A stretch of DNA of 64,000 bases, taken from positions 32,001-96,000 of the IMG/VR virus record IMGVR_UViG_3300023243_000009; one strand, given 5' to 3'. The stretch's first letter is position 1. Each line of letters starts with the position of its first letter. Below the pieces are notes generated by a model. It did no database searches, was not told where the DNA came from, and was given only the letters and a program-made list of their open reading frames with translations. Of the stretch, positions 8,601-59,893 are shown in pieces. This DNA comes from a virus. The translations under genes were made by a program, and so were the position numbers.

Positions 8601-10582
8601 GAATATCTAATATCGGTACTAGCTACGTTATTAATAGCTGGAGGGATACCTGGGGTTTTGAATCTAAGTTGAATAGTTTGTGGGGTTCCACCTCCGAAAT
8701 TGACATTTGAAAGTAAGGAAGATGATAAAAAGTTGTCTGATGTTTCTCCTGTATTAAATGCGTAGTTAAATACATTTTGTTTTAGATCCCAGTCTTGAGA
8801 CTCATTTCTATCTTTACCCCCAAATTCGTTTACTCTTAAAATAGTATCAGGAATACCATATGAAGTAATTAATGCTCTTAAACCAGCTACTGTACCTTTA
8901 GTTTTAAGTAAATATGGTAAATTATGATAAATACGTTTATAAATGCGTTTGTTTACATCACTTAATGGCACTATATCATTTGAAGCAGAAATTTGAGTAT
9001 CAACGTATTCATACCCAGAAGGAGTAGGTAAACTACTTGTAATTTCAGGGAAGGGAAATAAACTACCTGAAGGAGTTATTCCTAAAAATGCGGAGTATAA
9101 ATCATCATTATTAAAGTTATTAGAATATAGTTTAACTCCAAAATCTTTAATGGCATCAGCTATTAAATCTTTAGATATACCATAATCTAAACGGTTATCA
9201 GCATTAAATTTATTTGTAATGTCTTTAGTATACAACCAAATATTATCATAATGTTGAGCCACCATATCAATAAAAAGTTCATACTTTATATTTTCAGAAT
9301 CTTCTTTTAAATACTCAGGAATGGAATTATATAGTCTATCTGGGTTTTCTTCATCAAATAAAGAAGCGGATAGAGCTAACCCACCATAATTGACATTACT
9401 TTCATCTGCACTACCTAACCAAGTTAAAACTTCTAGGTTTTCTGTTGGATATAAAATAAAGGGAGGGGTAGAGTTAGATTTTGGGTAGGAATAACTTGAA
9501 CCACTATTAAAATACATAAAATATTCAAAACCATCAAAGTTCTGGATTAGTGTGTCTATGTTTGAATTTAATAGACCAACACTTGAAATATAAGATACAG
9601 AAGAAGTTGTAGCACTTGTTATATTTGAAGATATAGTATTTAATTGGTTACTATAATTTTCAATTAGTCCTACTTTATAATAGAAATTTTCTAATCTAGT
9701 TAATACTGATGAGAAATGAGTGAAATCATTGAAATCTTCATAATTAACGTTTATGTTAATTTCCTTAGTATTTAGTAAATTTTTAATTTGGTTAACTGAA
9801 CTAGTTACGTTTGAGTTTAATAATTCACTATATGAAAAAAGTTGACTAGAGTTCCCAGTTTCTTGTTTTACGTTTAAATTGAAATTAGGACCTGCTATAA
9901 ATTCAAAATCATCTTCAATAGTAGGAGTAAAGGGGAAATCAACTTGATATGCCTGGGGTGTAGATAATATTTCAACAACCCATAATTGTGATTTTAAATC
10001 AAATTCCTCAGGTAAGGGTTCGTATAATTTTATTAGAACCGTAGGGTCTTCAGTATTATTATTATCTAAGGATATATTATTAGCTATTACAATTTTATTA
10101 TCTCCAAAATTAAGATAAAAATCAGCAAAATAGGGAGTATTATCTCTATACCCTATAAATTCATTAGTAGAAGATACAATAGAAGTATTAGTAATAGTAT
10201 TACTATCTAACCTAATTTCAGTTCTATCAGAGGAAACTTCAGATATAAAATATGTTTCATTTATGTTAGAACTTAATCTTTTTCTATAAAAATTATAAAC
10301 GATAGAATAAATACCTATATCATATCCTAAATTTTCAAGATCTAATTGAGGGTTTAATAATACATCTCCTTGTTTAACATTAAAAGATGTTAAAGGGATA
10401 GTACTTGAAGGGTATATTTTAGTTTGATTTTCATCATATATATAAAACTCTATATAATCCGTTGATGATGAAAATTCTGTGTCTAAATCAGACACGGCTA
10501 TTAACTCGACATCAGAAGTTTTATAATCTTGAACTTCAAATGTAGTTGGGTCTAATTGTAATATTGTAATTTCCTCGTTCAT
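2606..10582 (-). CDS. Very large (2658 aa) virion/baseplate protein
   Basis: Uninterrupted ORF, Ser/Thr/Asn-rich, inside the baseplate module. Confidence 0.65.
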   Translation of the reverse strand: MNEEITILQLDPTTFEVQDYKTSDVELIAVSDLDTEFSSSTDYIEFYIYDENQTKIYPSSTIPLTSFNVKQGDVLLNPQLDLENLGYDIGIYSIVYNFYRKRLSSNINETYFISEVSSDRTEIRLDSNTITNTSIVSSTNEFIGYRDNTPYFADFYLNFGDNKIVIANNISLDNNNTEDPTVLIKLYEPLPEEFDLKSQLWVVEILSTPQAYQVDFPFTPTIEDDFEFIAGPNFNLNVKQETGNSSQLFSYSELLNSNVTSSVNQIKNLLNTKEININVNYEDFNDFTHFSSVLTRLENFYYKVGLIENYSNQLNTISSNITSATTSSVSYISSVGLLNSNIDTLIQNFDGFEYFMYFNSGSSYSYPKSNSTPPFILYPTENLEVLTWLGSADESNVNYGGLALSASLFDEENPDRLYNSIPEYLKEDSENIKYELFIDMVAQHYDNIWLYTKDITNKFNADNRLDYGISKDLIADAIKDFGVKLYSNNFNNDDLYSAFLGITPSGSLFPFPEITSSLPTPSGYEYVDTQISASNDIVPLSDVNKRIYKRIYHNLPYLLKTKGTVAGLRALITSYGIPDTILRVNEFGGKDRNESQDWDLKQNVFNYAFNTGETSDNFLSSSLLSNVNFGGGTPQTIQLRFKTPGIPPAINNVASTDIRYSQSLWSTDDGGNLILEYTGSGLVSSSYSGSSIDQYDTWGTLKWIPAYASDPTISSSIYFPAFNQDWWSVQVTMGDTNTNSTLYVANEINGRVGFNMSDYISGYDSSHYSQSTVGFLNKDTNVILGSNVYQPFSGSFQELRYFNAAIPQNTFHDFVLNPYSIEGTTTNSTPNELFFRADLGTELNTESRTSIHPKVTGSLSQITQSFSSNSSFYINNAEWVSNIENTYQDQVPSGIKSRVTDKIALIGNDIAESPSGSNGDIKVLSPFQSVQQESFVSSSYTPDVNYLEVAFSPQDQINDDINAQLGYFNIGDYIGDPRHISSNERSYPALDTLRNAYFEKYINSYNVVDFIRLIKFFDNSLFKMIKDFTPARTSLSSGVVVKQHILERNKQRPAQVSWSNETYSGSIKPQSRNYSTGSGDVGQYEANGGSSIYKFTGGTGGSLERYNGLQTSPSASAYGLNNQFNLTQSYSETIEGSISNTINNSGEFVGYGNIEIHDQRELYNGEFSGSSLIVTDQILNPGCGPYLKVTDNSISFNPIVFSLTSGDGTYFQGTTTETEILLNKNSPKSGDAWIISEQISISPPIAKVKYIKLSNKDINNKSIGDFLINSNSIKWITPDAVVRSNNNVAEYVIEGVTEFANSTLLRISQTQGDNIKTSTTDLTTDIVTEFYPITSSTSAGSENWSLNVSGDYRTSDSIGVGNDNLQQGNFIRSDNYQKQYFWSWDNPGNDSQSFFNSGSDLTPQNNITSDISKFNFGSYNPKRTSNIPWFFSASISYSASSLGTGGVIISENNIYHSSSKYTGATLTDQNFTFSNFGVESGVFKPSPLTVDVSNTFFKSEYNNQIPGDSGSSVNQIGGHPKIKIAGTASIDFHFPRLKIGGTPRILSPAIPGWTPLSGSDLTTMSSTPNANFTSSFPEDTIVNWSSSVSPNNKQGVYQDGAIEVSYDGVEEYFLRDNDSLNDIYIKYNLNISASISNYTASIQTRAYGSTNNTQNWYTLPQIYQSNANKQIVISNGEIPEPPTFSGITYNHMAFRIVLKSPEPSFEYRISTFNGSVYARFSGNNSYLSIPNTFNSTTFQGTPSNPQRFTSSFSSPGGRHPEIKIQAHLKKINSTGTVSTIASSDTPILEPIFGGKEFIFPDSPTINIVDINSIDDMYFIEYSMSNYDYNSDTNNESFNVAFLETGDLESKILITQALTSSEDGAYNLTGSLLIEKGNYDNPTQMGDVILSQQFIVPNSSSSGNVTLTGSFEFPFEYDDVFRMAVEVIKPTFNSGLAITSYTMSISPSSSIYAPLSSPPTNNIYKIPTSSGFIIPSYFGEGILPFNLALDCQPTLNNYNDIRDNSFIMDVSYNNISGSISPVNFDQILNNTADKAQTPDSNYTSTRSIRPRYNGTKTTGNQYNIWSIKDVDTYGKNPVIELKDAYFGYFKNIKDLYPLVNDKISLELTYLLDQQSNAVPPSLEGYGVNILEKTFPISNPISIGFISSSQYAQELDDSYPIYKLASKPTPILYSQTSSAGYALEIPLTGSGRISMYDNNDINTIVDYSFTAQGTSSYDNNNIIYTSKTSNYTQIINPTEEVVIDPFNAGSNYIDPYTTVNGSIIFGDNGSESVDKNPQRISMQTSFATSFLNESGGVELAFDVQMVSGSTPVEFNLEDISLIVHRTGKEPFNAGSIIGSGINNLIRFVSPISTTFTRKRNLYKTDTINAYNPQRGSYYALIENVPLNSFLTQKGVYTQGKGGAFFKGDINGLEFVIKANSGEFLFKTNDSIHFKVKIEIQKPKKEKFGPNILYPADYEGLKFPSKLSTIGERTSLLAGDNKGTSPFWVYPNSTDKNILIMSSSNINEAYGGKFYQGPLKYVPGPSEYFDSGVEPSGTQFPKITSPIEFFPGDEIRFGNNENYTYIIKSVVPPENNIVDGIGKIKIVLDSEVPESINKDFFLIRRFTPKASSFILDTQFPYSAESSGSEANGIIYPTFPTDYIKNSGSSIVTDLIDKGVIK

Positions 10583-10601
10583 ATATTAAAATCTATTCTA
10601 T

Positions 10602-11036
10602 TTAAGAAGGAATGTTTGTTATTTGGTCTGTTATACTTTTTAATTCAGAATTTAATTTTTGAAATTCGTTAGTTTCTGAAGCTGATATGGTTTCGGAAAT
10701 TGAACCTGAGAGGGCCTGTATGTTTGCTTTTAATAAATCTTGGCGTAATAAAGTGATTTCGGCTTGTAATGCTTCTATTTCTTCATTGTTTTGATTGAAG
10801 TTAATATATTCCCCACTTTGTTCTACTAAGTATCTATGGGAATTGGTAGACCCTTCAGGTGAGATTTCATAGAATAATTCATTATATAAATTAAAAAATT
10901 CCGTAAGGGTAATTTGATTTTGAATATCTTCTTGGATAGTAGTTACCCCCAATTCTCTAAAGCTAGTGTTTATAGTTTTAGTGTATTGAGATTTACTAAA
11001 TACTTCTTTTTTTAAATCTATTTTAGATTCTACCAT
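10602..11036 (-). CDS. Hypothetical protein with C-terminal coiled coil
   Basis: ORF track; tightly packed in the structural operon. Confidence 0.6.
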   Translation of the reverse strand: MVESKIDLKKEVFSKSQYTKTINTSFRELGVTTIQEDIQNQITLTEFFNLYNELFYEISPEGSTNSHRYLVEQSGEYINFNQNNEEIEALQAEITLLRQDLLKANIQALSGSISETISASETNEFQKLNSELKSITDQITNIPS

Positions 11037-11038
11037 AA

Positions 11039-12187
11039 TTATCCATTAATAACTTTAAAGTAATATTTATCATCTTTTATAATAGTGCTACCTGAGATAG
11101 TAGTTTGTATTAAAATCTTATAATATCTTTCAGGTTCTAACCCATTCATATATATATCAAAGTAATTTCCTTCTTCATTGCATGATATTTTAGTAGAATT
11201 AGGATCGAAATCTATAATATATTCATTAGTATCCAAATCCTGCAGGGCGTATAAAGAGTCACTATTTAAAAACTTATTATTAGTATAAATAGAAGAGGTT
11301 TGATAGGCACGGGTAGGGTATTCTTCTCTAACATTTAATTTAAACCTATTAATGCTGTTAATATTAAAAGTTCCAGGATTGTTATTTACAGAAACGTGTA
11401 AATCGGGTGTTGTTATTTCTTTTAAACTCCCAGTTAAGAATGATTGGTCATCCCACTTAAGTTCTAATTGTGGTGGGTATATAGTATTGGTATCTACAGA
11501 ATAAAATTGCATAATAGGTTGAACACTATCGTTTTGATTAAATTCTATAACATCCTCCCATTTCACAATAAACCCATTGTTAGGAATAGAGGTATAACCT
11601 CCTATTGAATTCGAGCTTGAGTACCAAACCTTTACAATATCACTTACATCTACATCTAGATCTTTATTAGATCTTAAATCAAAGGTTTGAGATGGGTTTA
11701 ACAAAGTATTATTTGGGTCTGAGGATCCTGTGAACCAGGTTCCACCACCTAAATAACTTCCAGAGAAGGAAGAGGTTATATAACTACCAAATCCACTAGT
11801 AGGCCATAAATTACCATTTTCAAAATCCGAATACCTCCAACTTACACCATTAACCGTAAAGGGTGAGTCTAAATATGTTCCAGTACCATTATTCCATTCG
11901 CGTGCTACAGGATATACTTCTAGATTAGTGTTAGATATAATCCCTTGAGCTGTAGCTATATAAGTTTTTAATCTACTAGAGAAGTTAGTGTTTCCTATTT
12001 TATTATTAATAACGTCTTCAATTTCACTTTGACTAAATTTTATTAGGAATCTGAATACTTGGGGTAAAGATTTATAGTTTAAATTTAAATTTCCTATCTC
12101 TATAATAGGATCTATCCCAGCATTCATTGTAGGGTAAAATGAATATATAGATGCGTCTTGAATGGGGAATAATTTATATACTGCCAT
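11039..12187 (-). CDS. Putative virion protein, DNRLRE/CBM96-like beta-sandwich
   Basis: QDASIYS..P..NAG N-terminus and PQLELKWDD motif resemble the DNRLRE domain. Confidence 0.5.
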   Translation of the reverse strand: MAVYKLFPIQDASIYSFYPTMNAGIDPIIEIGNLNLNYKSLPQVFRFLIKFSQSEIEDVINNKIGNTNFSSRLKTYIATAQGIISNTNLEVYPVAREWNNGTGTYLDSPFTVNGVSWRYSDFENGNLWPTSGFGSYITSSFSGSYLGGGTWFTGSSDPNNTLLNPSQTFDLRSNKDLDVDVSDIVKVWYSSSNSIGGYTSIPNNGFIVKWEDVIEFNQNDSVQPIMQFYSVDTNTIYPPQLELKWDDQSFLTGSLKEITTPDLHVSVNNNPGTFNINSINRFKLNVREEYPTRAYQTSSIYTNNKFLNSDSLYALQDLDTNEYIIDFDPNSTKISCNEEGNYFDIYMNGLEPERYYKILIQTTISGSTIIKDDKYYFKVING

Positions 12188-12200
12188 TTTTATTTTTTTA

Positions 12201-14036
12201 TTATAATGTTATTACTCTACCTTTAATATCCTCATTTGGGAATTTAACTTCAAATATACTAGGGTCTAATGAAGGGTAAATTACTCCGTTTTGGGTTGCT
12301 CCTTCTATACTATATGCATATTGGGAATATCCTGATAAAGCACCAGTTTTATTATGGATTTGGATGTTTTTAACTGTTTGTACTCCCATAATATTGTCTA
12401 GTAAATTATATAAATCTCTTAATACTATAGGTTGGTTTATCTGCCACCTGTTTATATTAAAGTAATCTTGTAGGGAACTTATACATTTAGCTAAAACCTC
12501 ATTGTTGTTATAATTAGGTAAAGTTAGGATTTCAAATTCACACCCTATATTAAGTATAAAAGCATCTTTAATACTCAAAGAATCCCCTATCATTCTATAT
12601 TGATTTATATAAGTTTTTAGGTTATTCTTTAAGGTAGAGGAAGCGGTAATTAATTTTTTAAGAGAATCATAAGTTAAAACATATAAATCTAGTGTTGAAT
12701 TTGCTTCATTTGCTTTTGGTTTTTGAATAAATGCCTTAGAAATAACCCCGTATCTACCTGACATGCTAAGTGCTCTAACTAAATAGTCATCAGCGGTTAC
12801 ATTACGTAACTGGCTATTGAAGTTGGATATTGTATTTTGTCTTAATTCTTCTATATTATCCCCATCTTGCCCCCCGCTTGCGGCTAATTCGTTATTAGCT
12901 GCTAGTGAACTAAAAATATAATCTGCAGTAGTTGGGTTTAAATTAGTATTTAAAAATGTAATATTATTTGTATTTAAATTAGTTAAAGTATTTGAAGAAA
13001 CATTAGAAGTTACACCACCACCCACTAAGTACCTTACTGTTAAGGTAGTATTAGAAGGGGCAATACCATAAGTATTTGTAAAAATAAAGTTAGTTGGGCT
13101 ATATGCTGTGGTTAATTTATTTTTTTCAAATGGTAAACCTAAACCCACATTATTAGGATTAGGTAAAATTTCCTCATCATTATCTCCAGGCTTCCCAGCA
13201 CCAAATTGAAGTTGGAGGGTAGTAGGGGATAAAAAACGAGTCGCAAATCTACGTTGTACTTGCTTTGTTTGTAATATGTAAGGAGTATCTAAATTAGAGG
13301 AGTTATTAGGATTATTTACGTTAGTATTTTTAATACCGTCAAATATTAATTCCTGTCCTAAATAATCTACCTCATACCATTTATTATTTTCAGAATCAAA
13401 TACATCTATTATTTCAGCAATATTAGAGTTATTTATTTCTACCGTTGGAAATTCTTGATAATTCCCGAAGCTAATGTTAGTACTACTTATGTTACCGGAT
13501 GTTGCTTTTCGTGTTTTCTTTAATAGAAAATATGTAGGTTCACCAGAAGAAATTTGGGCAATTGATACTGTAGTAAGATCTAAGGAATTGGATACTGAGA
13601 AATCAATTGTGTCTTCTATAATGAAGCTAACCCCAGTTGTTGAAGTTACAGTAGTATTTTCATTTACATATAAGGCATAAGTATAATCGGGAACCATCTC
13701 ACTATTAATATTAATAGAAGGCAATAATTGGTAAAAATCAATATTTACTATTGCTAGACCTGTAACTTTAGGTCTATAACCAAACATATATGCAAGTTCA
13801 TATAAATTATTATCTTGACGAGCGTATTGTAAAAATGTTTCTTGTACTTGGTTATCCAAATAAAAAGATAAAACATCCCCTACATACGCCGCTTGTTCCA
13901 TAAACATAATACCGGGGGATGCCGGGGAAAAATCTGTATATGTGTTAGGGAAATAAGTTTGGGAAAAATTAATAAGTTGTGACCTATAGTCATTAAAATC
14001 CTTATTAATATAATTTATGTCTCTATTTATTGCCAT
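12201..14036 (-). CDS. Baseplate wedge subunit, T4 gp6 / baseplate J-like
   Basis: KDFNDYRSQLINF, DVLSFYLDNQVQETFLQYA, GGQDGDNIEELR and RNVTADDY motifs. Confidence 0.85.
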   Translation of the reverse strand: MAINRDINYINKDFNDYRSQLINFSQTYFPNTYTDFSPASPGIMFMEQAAYVGDVLSFYLDNQVQETFLQYARQDNNLYELAYMFGYRPKVTGLAIVNIDFYQLLPSININSEMVPDYTYALYVNENTTVTSTTGVSFIIEDTIDFSVSNSLDLTTVSIAQISSGEPTYFLLKKTRKATSGNISSTNISFGNYQEFPTVEINNSNIAEIIDVFDSENNKWYEVDYLGQELIFDGIKNTNVNNPNNSSNLDTPYILQTKQVQRRFATRFLSPTTLQLQFGAGKPGDNDEEILPNPNNVGLGLPFEKNKLTTAYSPTNFIFTNTYGIAPSNTTLTVRYLVGGGVTSNVSSNTLTNLNTNNITFLNTNLNPTTADYIFSSLAANNELAASGGQDGDNIEELRQNTISNFNSQLRNVTADDYLVRALSMSGRYGVISKAFIQKPKANEANSTLDLYVLTYDSLKKLITASSTLKNNLKTYINQYRMIGDSLSIKDAFILNIGCEFEILTLPNYNNNEVLAKCISSLQDYFNINRWQINQPIVLRDLYNLLDNIMGVQTVKNIQIHNKTGALSGYSQYAYSIEGATQNGVIYPSLDPSIFEVKFPNEDIKGRVITL

Positions 14037-28982: not shown

Positions 28983-29213
28983 TTATAATAATAAATGTTT
29001 ATTTTCCAAATACATCCAAAATCTTTCAAGCCATAGGTTGATTTTTACTCCTTCTACTTCATCTTCTCCTAACATGCCATTGAGTTTTCTGCTAGCAGTA
29101 TATGCTATACCCATATCGATGCAGTCTCGAGCTTTATCCTTATCACCTAATTTAAAAAAATGTTTTGCTTGGGACAAACAGTGATGTAATATTTGTTTTT
29201 CTATTTTTGCCAT
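28983..29213 (-). CDS. Hypothetical protein
   Basis: ORF track. Confidence 0.6.
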   Translation of the reverse strand: MAKIEKQILHHCLSQAKHFFKLGDKDKARDCIDMGIAYTASRKLNGMLGEDEVEGVKINLWLERFWMYLENKHLLL

Positions 29214-29343
29214 AATTTTATTTTGTCTGTATTTATTTGAACTAAGTTATTATTCATTTTTACTAAAATATTACCGTTGAAATGAATGCCAAAGCATTTC
29301 TTTTTAATTCCCTCGAAGTTAACCCAATCTCCTTTCTTTACCA

Positions 29344-29751
29344 TTACAATTTATATTTTTGCTTGTAAACGTTGATTAAAGAATTCCCAACTCCTAATTC
29401 TAACACTTCAGCTGTATCCGGTATCCCTACTAACTTTAGGGAGGTTATGATATAGTCTATATTTTCATTAAAAATTTTCATTTTTATTTTAGAGTTAACA
29501 CGATTGGAATTTTTATATACTAAAACTACTACTTGGTTATTGTATGGTTTCTTTTTTTCAACCAATACCTTAGGATGTTTGTACCCCTTAGGTGGTGTAT
29601 ATTCTGTTTTATATGGACCATTAGGTACTTTATGTTTATTATAATACCATTTTGATACTCCCCCTATTTCAGGTTTTGAAGGAACTTCACACATAATCTG
29701 GGTGTACTTTATTAATGGTGATTTCTCTTCTATTGGTCTGCCTTTATTCAT
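29344..29751 (-). CDS. Hypothetical protein
   Basis: Starts at the repeated leader. Confidence 0.7.
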   Translation of the reverse strand: MNKGRPIEEKSPLIKYTQIMCEVPSKPEIGGVSKWYYNKHKVPNGPYKTEYTPPKGYKHPKVLVEKKKPYNNQVVVLVYKNSNRVNSKIKMKIFNENIDYIITSLKLVGIPDTAEVLELGVGNSLINVYKQKYKL

Positions 29752-29814
29752 AACCTTTATTGTTTTAATTAATTATTATACTTGAATATATGAAAAGTAA
29801 ATGTGGTAGCCCAA
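29749..29814 (-). promoter_or_regulatory. Repeated promoter+leader module, copy 9
   Basis: Same motif ending at the ATG of 29344-29751. Confidence 0.8.
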
Positions 29815-29861
29815 TTTGTTAGCGGATGTATTGTTTTTTAAGGTTGTGTGGGGTACCCATC

Positions 29862-29873
29862 GTTGTAAAAAAT
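29862..29873 (+). repeat. Lone GTT core (attI-like or secondary insertion site) at the array's left end
   Basis: GTTGTAAAAAAT without a left arm; complements the left core of the next site at 10/12. Confidence 0.55.
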
Positions 29874-30191
29874 TTAAATATTAAGTTCTTGATAGCTTAC
29901 CTTTTTCCCAAGCAATTTAACCTCTATAAACCAGTCAACATTATTACTTTTTAAAAATTTATTCCATTCTTTTTCTTTTTGCTTATAAACCGCTTTTGTT
30001 AAGTGTTTATGCCAATTTTCAAAATTCATTATATTAAACCGGTGTTCATTAATAACTATATTTTTACTATTTGCCTCACTTAACAAAAACTTCATATACA
30101 AGTCTTTTATATTAGCTTTATCGCATTCCCAAACATTGCTAACTTCTACCATATCCCATTGTTTATCGTGTATTTGTGTAATGTATATCAT
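29874..30191 (-). CDS. Cassette 1 hypothetical protein
   Basis: ORF track; stop abuts the GTT core box. Confidence 0.7.
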   Translation of the reverse strand: MIYITQIHDKQWDMVEVSNVWECDKANIKDLYMKFLLSEANSKNIVINEHRFNIMNFENWHKHLTKAVYKQKEKEWNKFLKSNNVDWFIEVKLLGKKVSYQELNI

Positions 30192-30198
30192 AATTTAA

Positions 30199-30341
30199 AC
30201 TTTTAACAACAACGTACAAAGAAAATAAACTACTATTCGCTTTCCGTTGTTCATTGTTTATTTGTGGGTTGTCGGTATTTCCGACATACCTCTATTTTTT
30301 TTAATCGTTTACTTTACTTGTACAAATCCGTTGGCAGTAAT
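30199..30341 (+). repeat. attC-like site 1
   Basis: ACTTTTAACAAC-AAC-GTACAA-AGAAAATAAAC ... GTTTACTTTAC-TTGTAC-AAATCC-GTTGGCAGTAAT. Confidence 0.8.
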
Positions 30342-30346
30342 AACTA

Positions 30347-30580
30347 CTAAGAGTACCATTTACCAATTTTCTCAAATTCTTCTACTACATCTTTACAATC
30401 TAATTGTTCTAATAAATCACAAAGCAATCCGTCAGCTATACAATGGCTTTTTGCATAATCCCTCTGTCCTTGTCTTTCTTTTAGTTCACTAATTACTGCT
30501 TTTTTAAAATCTAATTGTTTTTTGGTAAGTGCCATTTTATTAATATTTGTTTTTAATTTATCCGTTACTACTGCCAACAT
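30347..30580 (-). CDS. Cassette 2 hypothetical protein (start in the attC arm, or at the internal Met MALTKK)
   Basis: ORF track; MLAVV is encoded by the arm of site 2. Confidence 0.65.
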   Translation of the reverse strand: MLAVVTDKLKTNINKMALTKKQLDFKKAVISELKERQGQRDYAKSHCIADGLLCDLLEQLDCKDVVEEFEKIGKWYS

Positions 30581-30779
30581 CTTTTAAAGAAAAAAACTAA
30601 TTTATCCTTTTTAATAAACCAATTCTAACAAGTGGGTTATTGTTTTGGCTTTCAACTAATCTTTTACGATAATCTTGTAAACTTTCGTTTTTCTTTGGCA
30701 CTTTTATTAATTTTCCCATTTTTTACTTATTGTTTTAATTTATTCGTTTCTTTCCTTAAAAGGGTACGTTGTATTTAAT
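30567..30779 (+). repeat. attC-like site 2 (ORF in loop)
   Basis: ACTACTGCCAAC-ATC-TTTTAA ... TTAAAA-GGGTAC-GTTGTATTTAAT. Confidence 0.8.
30597..30719 (-). CDS. 40-aa ORF nested in the loop of site 2
   Basis: Hand-translated MGKLIKVPKKNESLQDYRKRLVESQNNNPLVRIGLLKRIN; A-rich leader. Confidence 0.5.
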   Translation of the reverse strand: MGKLIKVPKKNESLQDYRKRLVESQNNNPLVRIGLLKRIN

Positions 30780-30780
30780 G

Positions 30781-31038
30781 CTAATCTTTAGGCACATTAG
30801 CACAAACAGTTCCTTCTTCTTGGTGTGTTTGGTTAACAAGTGGATTGCCTCTTACGCTTAAATTAAATGGCTCAACATAACCTTCTTTAGCAAAATACCA
30901 TTTACCTTCATACTTAAATTCAAAACCGCTATCACGCATACAGATAGCCATTTCTTCACCATCACTTGTCTTTAATACAACAGATTTAAATACTTCTTCA
31001 AGTTGCATTATGTTTTTTTCGTTTACTGTAATTTTCAT
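30781..31038 (-). CDS. Cassette 3 hypothetical protein
   Basis: ORF track; stop 1 nt from the core box. Confidence 0.7.
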   Translation of the reverse strand: MKITVNEKNIMQLEEVFKSVVLKTSDGEEMAICMRDSGFEFKYEGKWYFAKEGYVEPFNLSVRGNPLVNQTHQEEGTVCANVPKD

Positions 31039-31068
31039 TTCATTTATAATTTATAGTTAATAACCCGC

Positions 31069-31213
31069 ACTAAAATACAACACCGTACAAAATTAATTGC
31101 TTGGTTTTGGTTTACTTGCGAACGTCCTCGCATCCTTTAACTTTATTTTTTATTTATTGGTTTTAGTGTTTTTTTTATCGCAACAAATCTTGTACGCGCA
31201 CGTTGTAACAAAT
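31069..31213 (+). repeat. attC-like site 3
   Basis: ACTAAAATACAAC-ACC-GTACAA-AATTAATTGC ... GCAACAAATC-TTGTAC-GCGCAC-GTTGTAACAAAT. Confidence 0.8.
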
Positions 31214-31257
31214 TATTTTTTATTAGGTTACTTTTCTGTTTGCAAATTATCGTAATT

Positions 31258-31377
31258 TCATTCCTCTTTTTCTTGGTCTGTTTGCAAAAAATCACTTGTA
31301 ACAACAACGTATAAATCATTATTACTGCTTAATGGGTTTCTAGAATAAAATTCATCTTTAAAATCTACTGGTCTCAT
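31258..31377 (-). CDS. Cassette 4 ORF (39 aa) starting inside site 4
   Basis: Hand-translated MRPVDFKDEFYSRNPLSSNNDLYVVVTSDFLQTDQEKEE. Confidence 0.45.
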   Translation of the reverse strand: MRPVDFKDEFYSRNPLSSNNDLYVVVTSDFLQTDQEKEE

Positions 31378-31435
31378 AATTAAGTTTTAGTTTATTTATC
31401 CGTAACAATGTTTATACGCATAAGTTGTAGTGCAT
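31294..31435 (+). repeat. attC-like site 4
   Basis: ACTTGTAACAAC-AAC-GTATAA-ATCATT ... AATGT-TTATAC-GCATAA-GTTGTAGTGCAT. Confidence 0.8.
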
Positions 31436-31440
31436 TAAAA

Positions 31441-31709
31441 CGACACCACAACAACGTGTATAGGTAATTATTGCCCTTGCTTCACTATCTTATAACCAAG
31501 TTCGTGCAAATCTTCAAGCAAACGAATAGTCATAGTTGTTTTAGGTGTTTTCTCAAAAAACTCATAACCTCGCTCTTTTATTATGTGCAGTAATATGTTT
31601 TGCTCTTCAGCATTTGCACCTCCAAATAATTGTTCTATCTCTTTCATAATTTATTTTATTTTAATTAAATCGGGCAAAAACTACCCATACATAAACCGTT
31701 AGCAGTAAT
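31441..31709 (+). repeat. attC-like site 5 (ORF in loop)
   Basis: CGACACCACAAC-AAC-GTGTAT-AGGTAATTATTGCCC ... GGGCAAAAACTACCC-ATACAT-AAACC-GTTAGCAGTAAT. Confidence 0.8.
31468..31647 (-). CDS. 59-aa ORF nested entirely in the loop of site 5
   Basis: Hand-translated MKEIEQLFGGANAEEQNILLHIIKERGYEFFEKTPKTTMTIRLLEDLHELGYKIVKQGQ; A-rich leader. Confidence 0.6.
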   Translation of the reverse strand: MKEIEQLFGGANAEEQNILLHIIKERGYEFFEKTPKTTMTIRLLEDLHELGYKIVKQGQ

Positions 31710-31710
31710 A

Positions 31711-31911
31711 TTAAATATCAATTGATTTAATTAATCCTTCCAGTTTTTCACGTGCGCCATCCCTAATGCTATGATAACCCCCAAGTTTGTTTTTACATAT
31801 ATCCATTGTGTTAATTAATGCATTTATCATTTGTGCTTTATCAGCCATACTAATGCTAACAACGTGTATATCACATTGCTGTTCTGTTTCTAGGTCTTTA
31901 CTTTTATCCAT
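31711..31911 (-). CDS. Cassette 6 hypothetical protein starting inside site 6
   Basis: ORF track; QCDIHVVSIS is encoded by the arm. Confidence 0.7.
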   Translation of the reverse strand: MDKSKDLETEQQCDIHVVSISMADKAQMINALINTMDICKNKLGGYHSIRDGAREKLEGLIKSIDI

Positions 31912-31989
31912 TTTATTTAGTTTATTACTTATTAAAAATTATTGTTTATCTACTCGCAACGCTACATACACAAATACGTTATATGCAAT
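31849..31989 (+). repeat. attC-like site 6
   Basis: ACTAATGCTAAC-AAC-GTGTAT-ATCACATTGC ... GCAACGCTAC-ATACAC-AAATAC-GTTATATGCAAT. Confidence 0.8.
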
Positions 31990-31990
31990 G

Positions 31991-32230
31991 CTAAATGTTT
32001 AATTGCTCTACTCGCCACGTTCGGTTTTTATGGTCTATCCATAGGCTTCTGCAATTTAATTGGTTTATTCTATCGCCGTAAATGTTTGTTACAAATCTAA
32101 AACCTCTCTTTTGTGCTTCTTCAGCGTCAATGCTTATAAATAATTGTCTGTACTTATCACGCACTTCAAATAACAACGTATAAAAAAAATTGCTACTTTC
32201 TCCATTTTTATAATCTAATTCTTTAAACAT
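31991..32230 (-). CDS. Cassette 7 hypothetical protein starting inside site 7
   Basis: ORF track; NFFYTLLFEV is encoded by the arm. Confidence 0.7.
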   Translation of the reverse strand: MFKELDYKNGESSNFFYTLLFEVRDKYRQLFISIDAEEAQKRGFRFVTNIYGDRINQLNCRSLWIDHKNRTWRVEQLNI

Positions 32231-32302
32231 AATTTATGATTTTATTTATTAATTTCACTATAATTAAACGCAACATTTCTTATACAATGCGTTGTAAACC
32301 AT
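32163..32302 (+). repeat. attC-like site 7
   Basis: ACTTCAAATAAC-AAC-GTATAA-AAAAAATTGC ... GCAACATTTC-TTATAC-AATGC-GTTGTAAACCAT. Confidence 0.8.
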
Positions 32303-32303
32303 A

Positions 32304-32471
32304 TTATTGTTTAGTTCCATCCATTAAATTACAAGCCTCGCATTGTCTTTGGCAAGTGCTTTCATAATGTGGGTTCTTGTGGTCATAACAATAAAACGAT
32401 TCAACAACACCGTATATAAAGCATTTTTTCTTTACTTTCTTTTTACTAAACAACCTACTAATCAAACTCAT
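32304..32471 (-). CDS. Cassette 8 Cys-rich 55-aa protein starting inside site 8
   Basis: Hand-translated MSLISRLFSKKKVKKKCFIYGVVESFYCYDHKNPHYESTCQRQCEACNLMDGTKQ. Confidence 0.6.
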   Translation of the reverse strand: MSLISRLFSKKKVKKKCFIYGVVESFYCYDHKNPHYESTCQRQCEACNLMDGTKQ

Positions 32472-32544
32472 TTTTTATCTATTAATTAGTTTTGTTGCTT
32501 AATTCAAGGTCGCAACGTACCTTATACAATTCGTTGGTAGTTAT
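32396..32544 (+). repeat. attC-like site 8
   Basis: ACGATTCAACAAC-ACC-GTATAT ... TTATAC-AATTC-GTTGGTAGTTAT. Confidence 0.75.
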
Positions 32545-32551
32545 TTTTTAT

Positions 32552-32698
32552 TTATAGATAATTAAAGATTATTATTAATAATAAAAAGCCTATTAATAGT
32601 AAAAAAGTAAATTTAATATCAAAAAAACAAATGCCAACATCTTTTATAACAAATTGCTTTTTATTTACTTTTTTACTAAATTGTTTATATTCTATCAT
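32552..32698 (-). CDS. Cassette 9 single-TM 48-aa protein starting inside site 9
   Basis: Hand-translated MIEYKQFSKKVNKKQFVIKDVGICFFDIKFTFLLLIGFLLLIIIFNYL. Confidence 0.55.
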   Translation of the reverse strand: MIEYKQFSKKVNKKQFVIKDVGICFFDIKFTFLLLIGFLLLIIIFNYL

Positions 32699-32766
32699 TT
32701 ATGTTATATTTATTTACTAATTATTAATTTACGCAAAATGCAATAAAAGGGTACGTTGTAAGTAAT
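32627..32766 (+). repeat. attC-like site 9
   Basis: ACAAATGCCAAC-ATC-TTTTAT-AACAAATTGC ... GCAAAATGCA-ATAAAA-GGGTAC-GTTGTAAGTAAT. Confidence 0.8.
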
Positions 32767-32774
32767 ATTATTTA

Positions 32775-33074
32775 CTATCTTTTTGCTGCACTTGTAGAGC
32801 TACTGCTTAACGCGCCTATACCTAATATAAATCCGAAGTCATACCAACCTCCGTTATTATTTACAGCATATATTGCTATATCGCTACTAAACAAACTACC
32901 TATCCATGCAAATGGTGCAATCATTCCGTGCCAAAGTCCTCCCCAAAATCCATAAGGAGCAACTGTGGTACACGCTTCTATATTAGAGACATCGGCACAT
33001 CCCGTAAATAAGACTACAACCAACAACGTGTATAAAAAATACTTACTAATTCTGTTTAAATTTACTTTTTTCAT
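32775..33074 (-). CDS. Cassette 10 lipoprotein-like membrane protein starting inside site 10
   Basis: LFTGC lipobox; GFWGGLWHG...NNNGGWYDFGF motif. Confidence 0.75.
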   Translation of the reverse strand: MKKVNLNRISKYFLYTLLVVVLFTGCADVSNIEACTTVAPYGFWGGLWHGMIAPFAWIGSLFSSDIAIYAVNNNGGWYDFGFILGIGALSSSSTSAAKR

Positions 33075-33154
33075 CTTTACTTATTTTAATTATTAATATT
33101 AAATTCTATTTATTTTTACTCGTACATTTTATACACAAATACGTTGGCAGTCAT
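33013..33154 (+). repeat. attC-like site 10
   Basis: ACTACAACCAAC-AAC-GTGTAT-AAAA ... TTTT-ATACAC-AAATAC-GTTGGCAGTCAT. Confidence 0.8.
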
Positions 33155-33183
33155 TATTGTAAAAAGGCCACATATATTACGGC

Positions 33184-33393
33184 CTATATCGTGTCTAAAT
33201 GATAACTAATTATTCTTTCTTTTATTTCTTTGTCAGACAATTCTTTTATGGATTGACAATTAAATATGTATTTTTTATTATCAAATAAATCAATTAAATT
33301 ATATTCTGCTGAATAAGTATAACTACCGTGATTAACAAAAATTCTAAAATTTTCATTATCATTATTGTGTTTTACTACTAGATTATTTATCAT
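33184..33393 (-). CDS. Cassette 11 hypothetical protein c
   Basis: ORF track. Confidence 0.6.
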   Translation of the reverse strand: MINNLVVKHNNDNENFRIFVNHGSYTYSAEYNLIDLFDNKKYIFNCQSIKELSDKEIKERIISYHLDTI

Positions 33394-33450
33394 TTTTTTT
33401 TAATATATACTTATTTAAAATAGCTTTTAATTTTAATTTTTTTATTCATT

Positions 33451-33672
33451 TTATTTACCGCAATGCATTTCACAAAGACCATGTTTATTTTCAAATATAA
33501 CTCCTTTATTTGTTTTATTACAATCGTGTTCCACTATACAAGCAAACATATTAGTAGCTTCATTAGAAGCTCCTTGGTTTATCTTATTCCAAGGATGTTT
33601 AAATAACTCAATTTGGTTTTTACAATTACAACAGCATTCACCACTATGCCATCCTTTATCACATTTTATCAT
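33451..33672 (-). CDS. Cassette 11 Cys-rich protein b
   Basis: GECCCNCKNQ...HGLCEMH motifs. Confidence 0.65.
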   Translation of the reverse strand: MIKCDKGWHSGECCCNCKNQIELFKHPWNKINQGASNEATNMFACIVEHDCNKTNKGVIFENKHGLCEMHCGK

Positions 33673-33800
33673 TAGTTCTGGTTTTGTTTTTTATCAAAAA
33701 TATTTAGCATATCTATTAAGTAGTAGATGGTCATAATTAAAAAATACACCCAAAATATAGGGTTGGTTAAAATAAAAAACTTATCTCCGTTTGTGTTCAT
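33672..33800 (-). CDS. Cassette 11 small TM protein a (42 aa)
   Basis: Hand-translated MNTNGDKFFILTNPIFWVYFLIMTIYYLIDMLNIFDKKQNQN; TAATG overlap. Confidence 0.5.
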   Translation of the reverse strand: MNTNGDKFFILTNPIFWVYFLIMTIYYLIDMLNIFDKKQNQN

Positions 33801-33849
33801 ATATTATGTATTTTAATTTTAAATAAAATTAATGGGGTTTTATAAAATA

Positions 33850-33981
33850 ACTGCAACCAACAGCGTGTATAATTTATTAACAAATTTACTAAATTAACAT
33901 CAATCTACCAAATCTATTTTTATAGTGTACTTTTATTAATCACATAGTTAACAAACTATACACGCATAAGTTATATGCAAT
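33850..33981 (+). repeat. attC-like site 11
   Basis: ACTGCAACCAAC-AGC-GTGTAT-AATTTATTAAC ... GTTAACAAACT-ATACAC-GCATAA-GTTATATGCAAT. Confidence 0.8.
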
Positions 33982-34169
33982 TAATCGGTGGTCTGTGTTA
34001 TTTTAACACCTCCTTGTATGCTGCCAAACGCACACCCTGCAAATAATAACCAATTCCATCCATATTCAAATGTTCCGTTTATAAAATCAACAATATGTAA
34101 TGCTAATCCTATTCCGCATACAAGAAGTAGCGTCATTCCCCAAATAAAAGTTCTTGTTTCTTTAGTCAT
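33981..34169 (-). CDS. Cassette 12 two-TM membrane protein
   Basis: ORF track; stop overlaps the core box. Confidence 0.65.
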   Translation of the reverse strand: MTKETRTFIWGMTLLLVCGIGLALHIVDFINGTFEYGWNWLLFAGCAFGSIQGGVKITQTTD

Positions 34170-34224
34170 TTTTATAAGTTTTATTTATTAATTAATATTT
34201 GTTTCTATTTATACGCTACTAGGC

Positions 34225-34247
34225 ATACACAATGCTTTGTAAAAAAT
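34225..34247 (+). repeat. Degenerate attC-like right arm (GTT mutated to TTT)
   Basis: ATACAC-AATGC-TTTGTAAAAAAT; left arm not confidently located. Confidence 0.55.
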
Positions 34248-34390
34248 TAAACCTTACTTACTGTTTTTTTAATAAAGTAATCGTATTGTCCTTTTAATTC
34301 TATTAATTCTTTAGAGGCTTGTCTTCTGCAAGCTTTCCTATAAGCTGGGTTTTCTTGCTCCCACCATTTAAATCCTGTAAATCCTTTCAT
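34247..34390 (-). CDS. Cassette 13 hypothetical protein (47 aa)
   Basis: Hand-translated MKGFTGFKWWEQENPAYRKACRRQASKELIELKGQYDYFIKKTVSKV; stop overlaps the core box. Confidence 0.55.
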   Translation of the reverse strand: MKGFTGFKWWEQENPAYRKACRRQASKELIELKGQYDYFIKKTVSKV

Positions 34391-34397
34391 CTGTTTA

Positions 34398-34548
34398 AAA
34401 TTTCACAACAACGCACAAAGAAAATAAACTACTTATCGCTTTCCGTTGTTTAGTTATTATTAATTTACGTTCTAATAAGTATAATCTAAATTTATATTTT
34501 ATTTTATAAATCATCGTTTACGTTTTTTATATATTCCTTAAAAGGTAC
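34398..34548 (+). repeat. Degenerate terminal attC-like site 13
   Basis: Left arm and first part of the loop nearly identical to site 1; right arm broken, no GTT core. Confidence 0.6.
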
Positions 34549-34549
34549 T

Positions 34550-34969
34550 TTAACTACAATATTTAATAAAGTTATCCAGCAACCCTTTTATATTATCTGC
34601 ACCAACGGGGTTTGCGGAGTGTATAAATATCCTGGGTAATTTTTTCTGGTTGTCCATGCAATAATCTACTAACCATTGGGCACAATCCATTCCTGTTTTT
34701 TCCTTGTAACTCTCACCACGCCATTCTTGAAATTTTTTACTTTCATCATAATCTTCCCAAAAATATTCAGGTGTATAATGCTCATCCGCTAAATCGTGGT
34801 CGAAAGAAATAGCATCAGGTAACCCAAATATTCCAATCCATTTTACAAACTGTTCATAATTCAAAACCCAATTTATATTATAATCTCCACCATCCGCATC
34901 TGTTGGTACTTTACCTTCTTCATTTATAAAAGGGTTTCTAATATCGTCTAACCAAAGTAAGTTCTTCAT
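34550..34969 (-). CDS. Cyclic-phosphate-processing receiver-like domain protein
   Basis: LWLDDIRNP, ISFDHDL, TGMDCAQWL and IHSANPVG motifs. Confidence 0.75.
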   Translation of the reverse strand: MKNLLWLDDIRNPFINEEGKVPTDADGGDYNINWVLNYEQFVKWIGIFGLPDAISFDHDLADEHYTPEYFWEDYDESKKFQEWRGESYKEKTGMDCAQWLVDYCMDNQKKLPRIFIHSANPVGADNIKGLLDNFIKYCS

Positions 34970-35003
34970 TTATTCTTTTTTTTATATTTAAATTAATTGT
35001 ATA

Positions 35004-35441
35004 TTATTTTTCAATACTTTTAATGTGGGTACAGCGTCCATCTTTTGCTCTAATAGCTCCAAAGCAGTTACAACTATATTTAATTGAACCATCTAATTGA
35101 GTTGATTCCTTAGTTAGATATTCTTTATCCCCTTTAGATGAAATAAATCTATGGGTTATTACTTCAATTTTAAATTTTGCTTTTGGTTTAGGTTTATCCC
35201 ATATGATATCCTTTAAGTTGGTTTTTGGGTGAACTTCAACCCAACCTGGCATTAAATAATGCTTGCCACCTATGTTGGTTAACATTGGAGGATTGAAACC
35301 ATTAATATGTTTATATGTAAATCTTTTGACATAATGTACCGGACCAAATCCATCACTTACACTTAAACTTCCTTCAGAGTGTACTATACGAGTTCTAAAA
35401 TTTCTATGCTTATTTAGAGTACTAATTTCCCAAAGTGCCAT
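35004..35441 (-). CDS. SWIM zinc-finger protein
   Basis: C-terminal YSCNC...CTHIK. Confidence 0.7.
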   Translation of the reverse strand: MALWEISTLNKHRNFRTRIVHSEGSLSVSDGFGPVHYVKRFTYKHINGFNPPMLTNIGGKHYLMPGWVEVHPKTNLKDIIWDKPKPKAKFKIEVITHRFISSKGDKEYLTKESTQLDGSIKYSCNCFGAIRAKDGRCTHIKSIEK

Positions 35442-35557
35442 TATTTGTAATCTTGAAGTTGAATTTCTGAATATTTAATTGCCTGAGCCTCAGTGAGACC
35501 TAGGTTCATTCCAATTCCAAACCAGTATTCTAAAATTTCTTGTTGATTTAATAACAT
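35441..35557 (-). CDS. Small hypothetical protein (38 aa)
   Basis: Starts at the repeated leader; TAATG overlap. Confidence 0.55.
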   Translation of the reverse strand: MLLNQQEILEYWFGIGMNLGLTEAQAIKYSEIQLQDYK

Positions 35558-57835: not shown

Positions 57836-57869
57836 ATACATTTATTTGAGATATTGGATAAAATTATTG

Positions 57870-57942
57870 TGGTCCGTATAGGAATCGAACCTATGACCTT
57901 TTCGTTATGAGCGAACTTCTCTACCAGCTGAGATAACGGACC
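57870..57942 (-). tRNA. tRNA-Met/Ile2 (CAT)
   Basis: Cloverleaf, loop CTCATAA. Confidence 0.85.
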
Positions 57943-58004
57943 TTGCCTTTTTTAGAGTTTTTAGGATAGAACTCAAGGACAGAACGACCTGTAAAACTAT
58001 TTAG

Positions 58005-58075
58005 AAGCGGATTGAGGACTCGAACCTCGCCTCAGGGTTATGAGCCCTACATGCTGCCAATTACACCAAACCGCA
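58005..58075 (-). tRNA. tRNA-fMet (CAT)
   Basis: GGG/CCC anticodon stem, 1:72 mismatch. Confidence 0.8.
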
Positions 58076-58078
58076 ATT

Positions 58079-58153
58079 TGGCGGTCTATGAGGGTTTCGA
58101 TCCCTCTACTCTACCGTGACAGGGTAGCATGATAGCCAGTTCACAAATAGACC
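58079..58153 (-). tRNA. tRNA-Asp (GTC), CCA encoded
   Basis: Cloverleaf, loop CTGTCAC. Confidence 0.9.
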
Positions 58154-58369
58154 GGTTTTGCTTAGTGAGATTACTAAGCTAGATTTTAACGGTTTTATTT
58201 CCTTTCAAACAAACTCATAAGTGTCTTACCACATGAAACAAAGTCAAATTACTGGGAGACTCTATTACCCGTCTTTATTCCTCAGAGAGCGGCGTTAAGG
58301 ATGTCCACTCTAGTACCCCCATTTTGTTTATAGACTCCATGGATGTCTGTAAGTATCTCTTACTTATTG

Positions 58370-58442
58370 TGGAGTAGATGGGACTCGAACCCACATACTT
58401 TACCTTGCAAAGGTACTGCTAAGCCAATTTAGCTACAACCCC
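58370..58442 (-). tRNA. tRNA-Ala (TGC)
   Basis: Loop TTTGCAA, G3:U70. Confidence 0.9.
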
Positions 58443-58615
58443 AATTAATTAAAAACTCTTTGTCCAAATTTCAGTTATGGAATTACGCTCCTTTGTTTCA
58501 GAGAGTAGATAACCTCTACAATAAACACAACTGCTGATACAGCTTACATATTACTTGAGGTATTTTACAAGTCTGAATACTATTGTTTATCTTCAAGCAA
58601 AGAATTTTTAATTTG

Positions 58616-58687: not shown

Positions 58688-58693
58688 ATTCAG

Positions 58694-59881: not shown

Positions 59882-59893
59882 ATTTTAATTTTG

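Follow-up and report, generated by a model that had tools for sequence, protein, structure and literature searches.

Integrons count as an invention of bacteria, built around a single specialised enzyme, the integrase IntI. Here we describe an array of attC-like sites and small gene cassettes in a phage, located at positions 29862-34996 of a 64,000-nt stretch of viral DNA (hereafter the window, positions 32,001 to 96,000 of IMG/VR record IMGVR_UViG_3300023243_000009). The array is probably an orphan of the kind called CALIN (cluster of attC sites lacking integron-integrases), belonging to a phage-borne integron analogue with a Xer-type enzyme, and would be either serviced in trans or inactive. 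An initial annotation of the sequence had read it as an integron cassette array, and this reading is partly supported: cassette-bounding sites, covarying boxes, a chain rule that links neighbouring sites and breaks at G|TT speak for an integron-like logic, but the enzyme linked to such sites elsewhere is Xer-like and the genes are antisense to the sites, and membership of the integron family is not supported. The term jumbo phage had to be given up for this large, flavobacterial-type phage, as the record measures 138,667 bp (G+C 31%) at an estimated completeness of 85%.

The closest precedent comes from phages. Using integron tools, Qi et al. (2023; PMC9892861) detected CALINs in phages, with two sites per phage, and read them as phage-carried integron components; in their assays IntI1 recombined the site P12002L_attC2 at G|TT, and the top strand gave no recombinants. 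That attC-type clusters occur in flavobacterial phages is already known, and P12002L, a virulent flavobacterial phage, resembles the window in carrying such a cluster without an integrase. The window array, however, is far larger (11 full sites), and the paper reports no phage Xer-type recombinase, attI, antisense or loop-start layout. According to our own scan, P12002L_attC2 sits at the edge of a same-family site array in Polaribacter phage P12002L, where such sites surround methyltransferase genes and obey the same chain rule; the attC1 primer sequence reads AAC-N3-box-CATTAAAACGA-box-N6-GTT, and its CATTAAAACGA loop recurs in the window. In our incomplete coverage of the literature we found no description of a phage-encoded Xer-type enzyme, a docking site or an antisense/loop-start gene layout.

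The likeness to integrons lies in the R''-L''...L'-R' order of the arms, the AAC and GTT cores, the unpaired central spacer, the boundary at G|TT and the single polarity of the array. As in integrons, especially the sedentary chromosomal ones with homogeneous attC sites, R'' is complementary to the preceding R' and the bottom strand appears to fold better, and relatives of the window array have a recombinase gene at one array end and insertion at the adjacent GTT. Unlike integrons, the enzyme linked to the sites elsewhere is a Xer-like protein of ~270 aa without an IntI-level score; the window genes are on the opposite strand and not co-oriented with the site, which overlaps the 5' end of the gene, whereas an integron attC lies 3' of it; the spacers measure 3 nt on one side and 5-6 nt on the other; the long loops stay open and contain some coding sequence; and the window has neither an integrase nor a recognisable attI. 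The Xer/dif system is related through the recombinase beside related arrays, which best matches XerA, XerC and XerD, but this enzyme adjoins a cassette array in phage genomes instead of acting at a chromosomal dif site. The promoter early stem-loops (PeSL) of T4-type phages (Arbiol et al., 2010, PMC2839356; Comeau et al., 2014, PMC4122927) likewise accompany small genes of unknown function in a variable region flanked by a repeated swap motif. They are, however, direct repeats with a promoter and a terminator stem-loop that exchange by homology, in contrast to the covarying inverted arms, chain rule and fixed G|TT boundary found here.

Site anatomy, chain complementarity and breakpoints

The array contains 11 complete and three partial or degenerate sites (29862-34551), all of one polarity (plus strand), which delimit ~13 small gene cassettes over ~5 kb and are followed by a terminal cREC_REC gene without a site of its own. 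All 11 inverted-repeat sites of one architecture listed by the initial annotation were recovered, and the two longer ones, s2 (190 nt) and s5 (246 nt), each owe their length to a whole enclosed open reading frame (ORF), as it had stated. Site calls rest on our own pattern and covariance model, not on IntegronFinder; coordinates give the C of the left AAC and the G of the right GTT on the plus strand, unless a range or core is named:

29844..29871, plus strand: s0, right half-site only (GGGTAC..CCATC|GTT, G at 29862), left array boundary
30210/30330, plus strand: s1, complete
30578/30768, plus strand: s2, complete, long
31081/31202, plus strand: s3, complete
31305/31424, plus strand: s4, complete, folded design recovered on both strands
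31452/31698, plus strand: s5, complete, long
31860/31978, plus strand: s6, complete
32174/32291, plus strand: s7, complete
32405/32533, plus strand: s8, complete
32638/32755, plus strand: s9, complete, TTTTAT/ATAAAA box type
33024/33143, plus strand: s10, complete
33861/33970, plus strand: s11, complete
core TTT at 34236, plus strand: s12, degenerate
AAC 34407-34409, right arm TTAAAAGGTAC, core TTT 34549-34551, plus strand: s13, degenerate

A site consists of a left arm ending in YAAC, 3 nt (mostly AAC), a box of 6-10 bp, ~4 nt, ATTGC, the loop, GCAAC, the complementary box, 5-6 nt and GTTR. The AAC and GTT cores are invariant among complete sites, the conserved core is only ~13 nt long, and the boxes occur as GTACAA, GTATAA, GTGTAT or TTTTAW. 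Measured between the two bases given in the list, nine sites span 109-128 nt, and their AT-rich, open loops measure 60-90 nt. The strict pattern AAC-N3-X6...rcX6-N5-6-GTT has nine matches clustered in 30210-33970 (3.8 kb), against a shuffle background of ~5 matches per 64 kb per strand. Neither this pattern nor a covariance model of 24 sites (R1) finds a second cluster in the 138.7-kb record; R1 recovers the untrained s2 and the degenerate s12, has no matches elsewhere in the genome and also matches untrained sites in Freya_10, L004, L164, G012, L095, L155, L148 and L025 (L and G numbers denote viral contigs). With default filters, R1 missed the short-loop P12002L sites and the long-loop s5. 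A CALIN is defined by at least two attC-type sites in a row with no integrase nearby; the locus has 11 full sites in 3.8 kb within a recombinase-free record of 138.7 kb. A much larger array of the same family was seen in L095 (IMGVR_UViG_3300033388_003553; 71 kb, 20% complete), where the model places at least 25 sites on one strand within 12.9 kb (1-12942); at this size and completeness its source must be a very large phage. As a search tool for sites in viral contigs, a plain 14-mer scan yielded mostly chance hits and was useful only after a filter for clustered sites.

Covariation was assessed in an alignment of 24 sites, nine from the window and 15 from seven other viral contigs. In 79.5% of the alignment cells the bases pair, compared with 68.4% in shuffles (0/500 reach the observed value), and sliding the register by one to three columns lowers this to 23-45%. 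The covariation score is 0.324 versus 0.135 in shuffles (0/500 reach it), a value to which the L boxes contribute in a partly built-in way, since sites were picked by box complementarity. The inner helix ATTGC/GCAAC (4-5 bp) was not used for site choice, and all five of its pairs show two-sided changes (e.g., TTGC/GCAA, GGGG/CCCC). The inner TTGC/GCAA clamp noticed in the initial annotation is real, and the arms do covary, in agreement with its view that structure rather than sequence is conserved in an attC layout.

Pairing is limited to the basal 15-20 bp; the 70-90-nt loops remain open, the asymmetric spacer (3 versus 5-6 nt) is unpaired, and the two R flanks of one site do not pair with each other beyond YAAC/GTTR. 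The designed closing stem was recovered on the minus strand in six of nine sites and on the plus strand in two to three of nine. Among the non-Watson-Crick cells of the L box, 21 are A.C and one is G.T on the plus strand, so that the minus strand receives G.T wobbles and folds better; by integron convention this minus strand is the bottom strand. The minus strand of s11 provides the sole fold better than shuffles (z = -3.6), and as folding energies are otherwise no better than those of shuffles we do not claim stable hairpins: of the hairpins first proposed, the paired base holds and the folded remainder does not. A search with Rfam including Flavo-1 at gathering and permissive thresholds brought only tRNAs above the gathering threshold, with E = 2.9 for the best match in 29000-35500; Rfam contains no attC family. 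The tRNAs belong to a dense cluster at 57869-63993 of 24 genes, all on the minus strand (ARAGORN; 22 reach the Rfam threshold). The match at E = 2.9, a weak MicA-like one, falls on a GGCC..GGCC hairpin with a T run at 33162-33219 (minus strand), just downstream of ORF 33184-33393; this hairpin looks like an intrinsic terminator inside cassette 11.

Neighbouring sites are linked by their flanks: over 17 nt, the sequence that follows each GTT aligns with the reverse complement of the sequence preceding the next AAC. The mean chain score of R'(n) versus R''(n+1) is 6.54, compared with 0.91 for the partners within a site and 0.90 for all other pairs, and none of 100,000 permutations reaches it (p<1e-5). 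Such chain complementarity is a hallmark of integron cassettes and is expected if a unit was once circular with its site opened between G and TT, since cutting circular cassettes at G|TT renders the flank after a GTT complementary to the flank before the next AAC. Used alone as a detector, a chain-rule scan (9 of 11 matches) was unspecific genome-wide (21 hits versus 9-22 in shuffles) and was rejected.

Blocks shared with other phages break at the same cores. The cassette 1 block, 29862-30336, reaches from the s0 G into the GTT core of s1 and is 99.4% identical in L121, L155 and L146, which have no other gene of at least 80 aa in common with this genome; judged by this identity in both phages, it shows that cassette 1 moved recently between unrelated phages. 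Cellulophaga phage Nekkels_1 carries 31980-32254 (cassette 7) at 83% identity, beginning 1-2 nt after the G of s6; L095 shares 31959-32293, with homology ending at 32293; and cREC homology begins at 34547. On comparative rather than biochemical grounds, the crossover point is thus placed at G|TT by block starts at 29862, 31980 and 34547 and block ends at 32293 and 30336. A similar picture emerges from assembled contigs (not raw reads) of four salt-lake metagenome runs placed on the window, where 24 loose ends were listed and, by hand count, 13 of these are no more than 10 nt away from an AAC or GTT core. Those near cores include 30575, 30774, 31423, 31432, 31462, 32293 and 33859, and several recur between runs, up to three times (32293 in three, 33859 in two). 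Contig ends in these runs, which come from the habitat of the phage record itself, frequently coincide with the cores. Two apparent joints, 31469>32171 and 32192>32271, were rejected as deletions because they are 22-nt arm matches from other sites. Two further contig joints, 33179>30208 (run X19, running backward) and 34192>34578 (run X17, skipping 34192-34578), do not lie at a G|TT pair.

Compared with its backbone relatives, the array is an insert. Contigs L131 and L132 resemble this phage over twelve genes (30-64% aa identity), have no sites at the locus and keep the homologues of the two flanking genes adjacent, with one 124-aa ORF between them:

29344..29751, minus strand: backbone gene left of the array, 135 aa, no family, 51% aa identity to the L131/L132 homologue
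35004..35441, minus strand: backbone gene right of the array, 145 aa, 38% aa identity to the L131/L132 homologue, syntenic with genes further right

The intervening ORF of L131 (9618-9992) is Cys-rich and HNH-like by impression, and this locus varies in further respects as well. Between 28.4 and 44 kb of the window every gene is on the minus strand. The phage record and Cellulophaga phages have single genes in common.

A Xer-like recombinase beside the same sites in other phages

In G012, L154 and L164/L165, a PF00589 protein of 267-271 aa is encoded immediately beside the array, with its start codon ~50 nt from the first GTT. The region between this start and the first GTT is conserved among G012, L154 and L164 (p <= 0.005), and in each case the polarity of the sites is directed away from the gene. 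The ~270-aa recombinase is Xer-like, although its scores lie below every family cut-off: it reaches 147 bits on the XerA-type model (cut-off 220), and XerA, XerC and XerD models and structures match best. On the integron-integrase model TIGR02249 it reaches 92-107 bits against a cut-off of 265, and in G012 and P0022 the match falls into two parts. Among solved structures, XerC-like and XerA chains are the best relatives, and the IntI4 chain aligns only over residues 12-166. Homologues in cultured Polaribacter and Cellulophaga phages are annotated as 'integrase'. A flavobacterial chromosomal homologue (357 aa, Aquimarina) has a housekeeping context, where no array was seen. A search for related loci with the recombinase as the sole query protein returned just the contig from which the query came.

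An insertion at the docking GTT can be read directly from the Polaribacter phages Freya_1 and Freya_10, which are 99.8-100% identical over flanks of ~3 kb and 1.9 kb except for a 4.9-kb array. This array lies upstream of the gene for the 271-aa integrase and has entered exactly at G|TT, as the sequences show: GGGGTG|TTGTAAACAAT in the empty site, GGGGTG|TTAGCAAC at the recombinase-proximal junction and ...CCATACCATATCCG|TTGTAAACAAT at the distal one. Ten small genes are carried by the insert, whose sites agree with those of the window in boxes, inner helix and span (118-119 nt). Other Freya and Danklef isolates hold subsets of the Freya array; in Danklef, another species of Polaribacter phage (MT732458-62, 38012-40580), 38% of the Freya_10 array (1-4200) is present at 97% identity in three pieces, an overlap that suggests cassette sharing between species. 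The paper describing the Freya phages takes the enzyme as a sign of a possible temperate lifestyle and leaves the cassettes unmentioned (PMC8776804).

From these observations a mechanism can be proposed. On the plus strand, a cassette starts with the TT of a GTT core and ends with the G of the core that follows. The tyrosine recombinase would open the folded site at the G|TT position, in the manner of IntI at attC, and release cassettes as circles, which would be taken up at the GTT beside the recombinase gene. We infer that the same Xer-like enzyme acts on the window array, with folded single-stranded DNA as its substrate. Because the phage record has no recombinase, the array would have to be serviced in trans, with the enzyme coming from a co-infecting phage or from a prophage, or else from a gene located in the ~15% of the genome that the record lacks; alternatively, the window array may no longer be active.

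Cassettes, gene layout and cargo

The cassette genes are all on the minus strand, antisense to the site polarity, and each unit usually contains one small gene, occasionally none or three:

29863..30330, minus strand: cassette 1, ORF 29874-30191 (105 aa) and s1 (AAC 30208-30210, GTT 30330-30332)
30331..30768, minus strand: cassette 2, ORF 30347-30580 and long s2 enclosing ORF 30597-30719 (40 aa); found by inverted-repeat search, chain score 9
30769..31202, minus strand: cassette 3, ORF 30781-31038 (85 aa) and s3; R1 93.9 bits (training member)
31203..31424, minus strand: cassette 4, short ORF 31258-31377 (39 aa) and s4; chain score 11
31425..31698, minus strand: cassette 5, empty unit and long s5 enclosing ORF 31468-31647 (59 aa)
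31424..31452, plus strand: 'empty' 29-nt unit, GTTGTAGTG - CATTAAAACG - ACACCACAAC, R' and R'' with the loop alone between them
31699..31978, minus strand: cassette 6, ORF 31711-31911 (66 aa, starts in the loop) and s6; chain score 5, R1 101 bits
31979..32291, minus strand: cassette 7, ORF 31991-32230 (79 aa, phrog_35589) and s7
32292..32533, minus strand: cassette 8, ORF 32304-32471 (55 aa, Cys-rich) and s8; chain pairing and R1 match
32534..32755, minus strand: cassette 9, ORF 32552-32698 (48 aa, hydrophobic) and s9; strict pattern, chain pairing and R1 match
32756..33143, minus strand: cassette 10, lipoprotein ORF 32775-33074 (99 aa, phrog_30702) and s10
33144..33970, minus strand: cassette 11, three ORFs (33184-33393, 33451-33672, 33672-33800) and s11
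33971..34238, minus strand: cassette 12, ORF 33981-34169 (62 aa, membrane) and degenerate s12; R1 match 34112-34248, 25.6 bits, untrained
34239..34551, minus strand: cassette 13, ORF 34247-34390 and degenerate s13
34550..34996, minus strand: last cassette, cREC_REC gene 34550-34969 (139 aa, PF20274, Pfam 72 bits), ~27 nt upstream, no site after it

For cassette 1, hand reading gives 17 paired positions out of 20 nt between R'(s0) and R''(s1) (chain score 10). The start of ORF 30347-30580 in cassette 2 is probably the internal Met at 30535; R1 matches the untrained s2 with 26.7 bits. Both ends of cassette 5 are common to L036 and L106. Its 29-nt empty unit (GTTGTRnnn-CATTAAAACG-nnnnYACAAC) recurs in L004 (~10660-10690), in G012 at a distance of 52 nt from the start of the recombinase (L158, 7491-7519) and in P12002L_attC1, where it forms the loop (L171, ~30020-30035), and may be a minimal cassette or a protein-binding hairpin.

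At its left end the array begins with a half-site alone beside a backbone gene. At the right end s12 and s13 have TTT cores in place of GTT and the cREC cassette has lost its site; these G-to-T cores suggest that this end is decaying. If entry occurred at the left, recombinase-proximal end as in Freya, the oldest cassettes would lie at the right, which would fit the decay there. The platform for cassette capture envisaged in the initial annotation is not borne out for this phage, in which an orphan array, apparently decaying at its right end, stands without a recognisable attI-like site. The left arm of s13 is a copy of that of s1 (85.5% over 69 nt to the s1 copy in L121). The s1 and s13 left arms (30205-30250 and 34404-34450) are near-identical direct repeats on either side of almost the whole array, which would be lost by homologous recombination between the two copies.

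Sites adjoin the 5' end of their gene and not its 3' end. At least six cassettes (s4, s6-s10) have an ORF that begins within the loop and continues across the left arm, without exception in frames giving T-L-L or H-V-V, and the loop often holds the start codon and the first ~15-20 codons. In cassette 10, the left arm of s10 encodes part of the lipoprotein signal peptide, and the phi17:2 homologue has ordinary sequence without the arm motif at these codons. The product of ORF 31711-31911 (minus strand) shares only its first 28 residues, encoded by the site, with that of L158 13272-13490 (minus strand; the G012 site), at 54% identity, and the bodies are unrelated. The site loop thus seems to supply the start codon and a leader.

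The cargo consists of small proteins without known family (membrane, Cys-rich, one lipoprotein) and the cREC_REC protein. The gene for the latter (PF20274, cyclic-phosphate processing receiver domain) occurs in nine otherwise unrelated viral contigs at 76-87% nt and 68-87% aa identity. These contigs (L003-L011) have no further gene in common with window positions 21.4-44.1 kb, and sites surround the gene only in L004, L009 and L011; in L004 it is bracketed by GTTAACTAC ... GTAGTTAAC and adjoined by a RadC/JAB-like ORF. A counter-defence function of cREC_REC is possible, and for the cargo as a whole a role in counter-defence or superinfection is our guess.

Weighing the explanations and significance

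Several observations weigh against a recombinase-driven cassette array. No tyrosine recombinase of any type was found in the 138.7-kb record by PF00589, tblastn or a phage-recombinase family hidden Markov model, extending to the whole record the absence of an integrase noted earlier for the window. Only three of ~25 site-bearing viral records have the small recombinase beside the array, and three site-bearing records rated 100% complete do not possess it; two site-bearing records encode ordinary integrases of 395-399 aa far from the sites. The left junction at s0, where an alignment first suggested an attI remnant, shows no significant likeness to the attI-like regions of G012, L164 and L154 (p = 0.09-0.6), and this candidate was rejected. 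Neither a cassette circle nor a clean single-cassette deletion was seen in the assembled metagenome contigs on the window. The hairpins are weak, with single-stranded folding energies within the shuffle range in 17 of 18 folds, and the selection effect on L-box covariation mentioned above has to be taken into account. Finally, the s2 and s6 units precede different gene bodies (for s2, those of the window, of L121 and of two metagenome contexts; for s6, those of the window and of G012); the s2 unit (30566-30774) is 96% identical in L121 behind a different gene body. One unit before different bodies implies exchange also at or near the AAC side, for which a single G|TT crossover is insufficient; homogeneous site types, as in chromosomal integrons, or a second exchange on the AAC side would explain this re-pairing.

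Exchange points on both the AAC and GTT sides would suit PeSL-type regulatory repeats, whose arms would be promoter/terminator modules between small early genes shuffled by homologous recombination without a dedicated recombinase. Two further features fit as well, namely a variable region of small ORFs, all on one strand, in a large virulent-type phage that lacks a recombinase, and loops just upstream of start codons, and shuffling including circles is documented for PeSLs (PMC2839356, PMC4122927). We nevertheless regard this explanation as unlikely: direct-repeat exchange leaves the chain complementarity of variable flanks and the compensatory changes in three helices unexplained, the conserved cores are only ~13 nt long, and the conserved parts are inverted arms, with the host-type Bacteroidetes -7 box TAnnTTTG in only 2 of 11 site units and without useful enrichment. 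Furthermore, the same sites lie beside a dedicated recombinase in three contigs, and the Freya insertion is exact at G|TT. The location of the genes on the better-folding strand, where plus-strand A.C cells become G.U in the mRNA, and start codons within loops would also be compatible with structures acting at the RNA level, in which minus-strand mRNA stems close gene bodies or inter-gene units for processing, stabilising or start-hiding and core breakpoints are a by-product of microhomology. This is rather improbable in our view, as stems across 100-800 nt of coding sequence are unusual and no Rfam family matches, whereas invariant GTT/AAC cores and exact G|TT insertion beside a recombinase gene constitute a DNA-level signature and unrelated phages share a 99.4% identical cassette whose limits coincide exactly with the cores.

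The R''-L''...L'-R' layout with AAC/GTT cores and the recombination by IntI1 of a site from the related P12002L array (PMC9892861) raise the question of a true bacterial-integron CALIN, i.e., classical attC cassettes derived from a host chromosomal integron and served by the host IntI. Here the genes are oriented against the site polarity, with their starts within the sites, the cassettes are met again in phage contigs and not in host contexts, the linked enzyme is Xer-like (92 bits versus the TIGR02249 cut-off of 265), and the one flavobacterial chromosomal homologue examined had a housekeeping context with no array seen, which renders such an origin very improbable. Least credible of all are miniature transposon-like elements in which a transposase moves gene bodies with terminal inverted repeats (GTT.../...AAC): inverted repeats of 9-20 nt do bracket each gene body, but beyond the 3-4-nt core they differ per cassette and therefore offer no common transposase-binding end, neither target duplications nor a transposase were found, the units are contiguous and of one polarity, and isolated scattered copies were not seen in this genome. 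Each of these alternatives covers part of the evidence, but not the combination of the chain rule with insertion exactly at G|TT next to the gene for a recombinase; an orphan array of a phage-borne integron analogue is in our view the most probable account.

Together with its relatives, the array appears to place an integron-like cassette logic comprising a folded site, crossover at G|TT and insertion beside the recombinase in virulent-type phages, linked to a simpler Xer-like enzyme and a different gene layout, and the window provides evidence that such arrays persist without their enzyme. For the wider proposal, the arguments appear to us evenly balanced: Bacteroidota phages may run their own integron analogue with a Xer-type enzyme, a docking GTT and leader-bearing sites, orphan arrays may use the recombinases of co-infecting phages, and unrelated phages may share one pool of small, probably counter-defence genes. 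If true, leader-bearing sites would let unit exchange re-pair leaders with different gene bodies, and the defined boundaries would help to locate mobile accessory and counter-defence genes of phages. It would also explain how large phages gain and swap many small orphan genes, and would bear on the origin of integron-type recombination.

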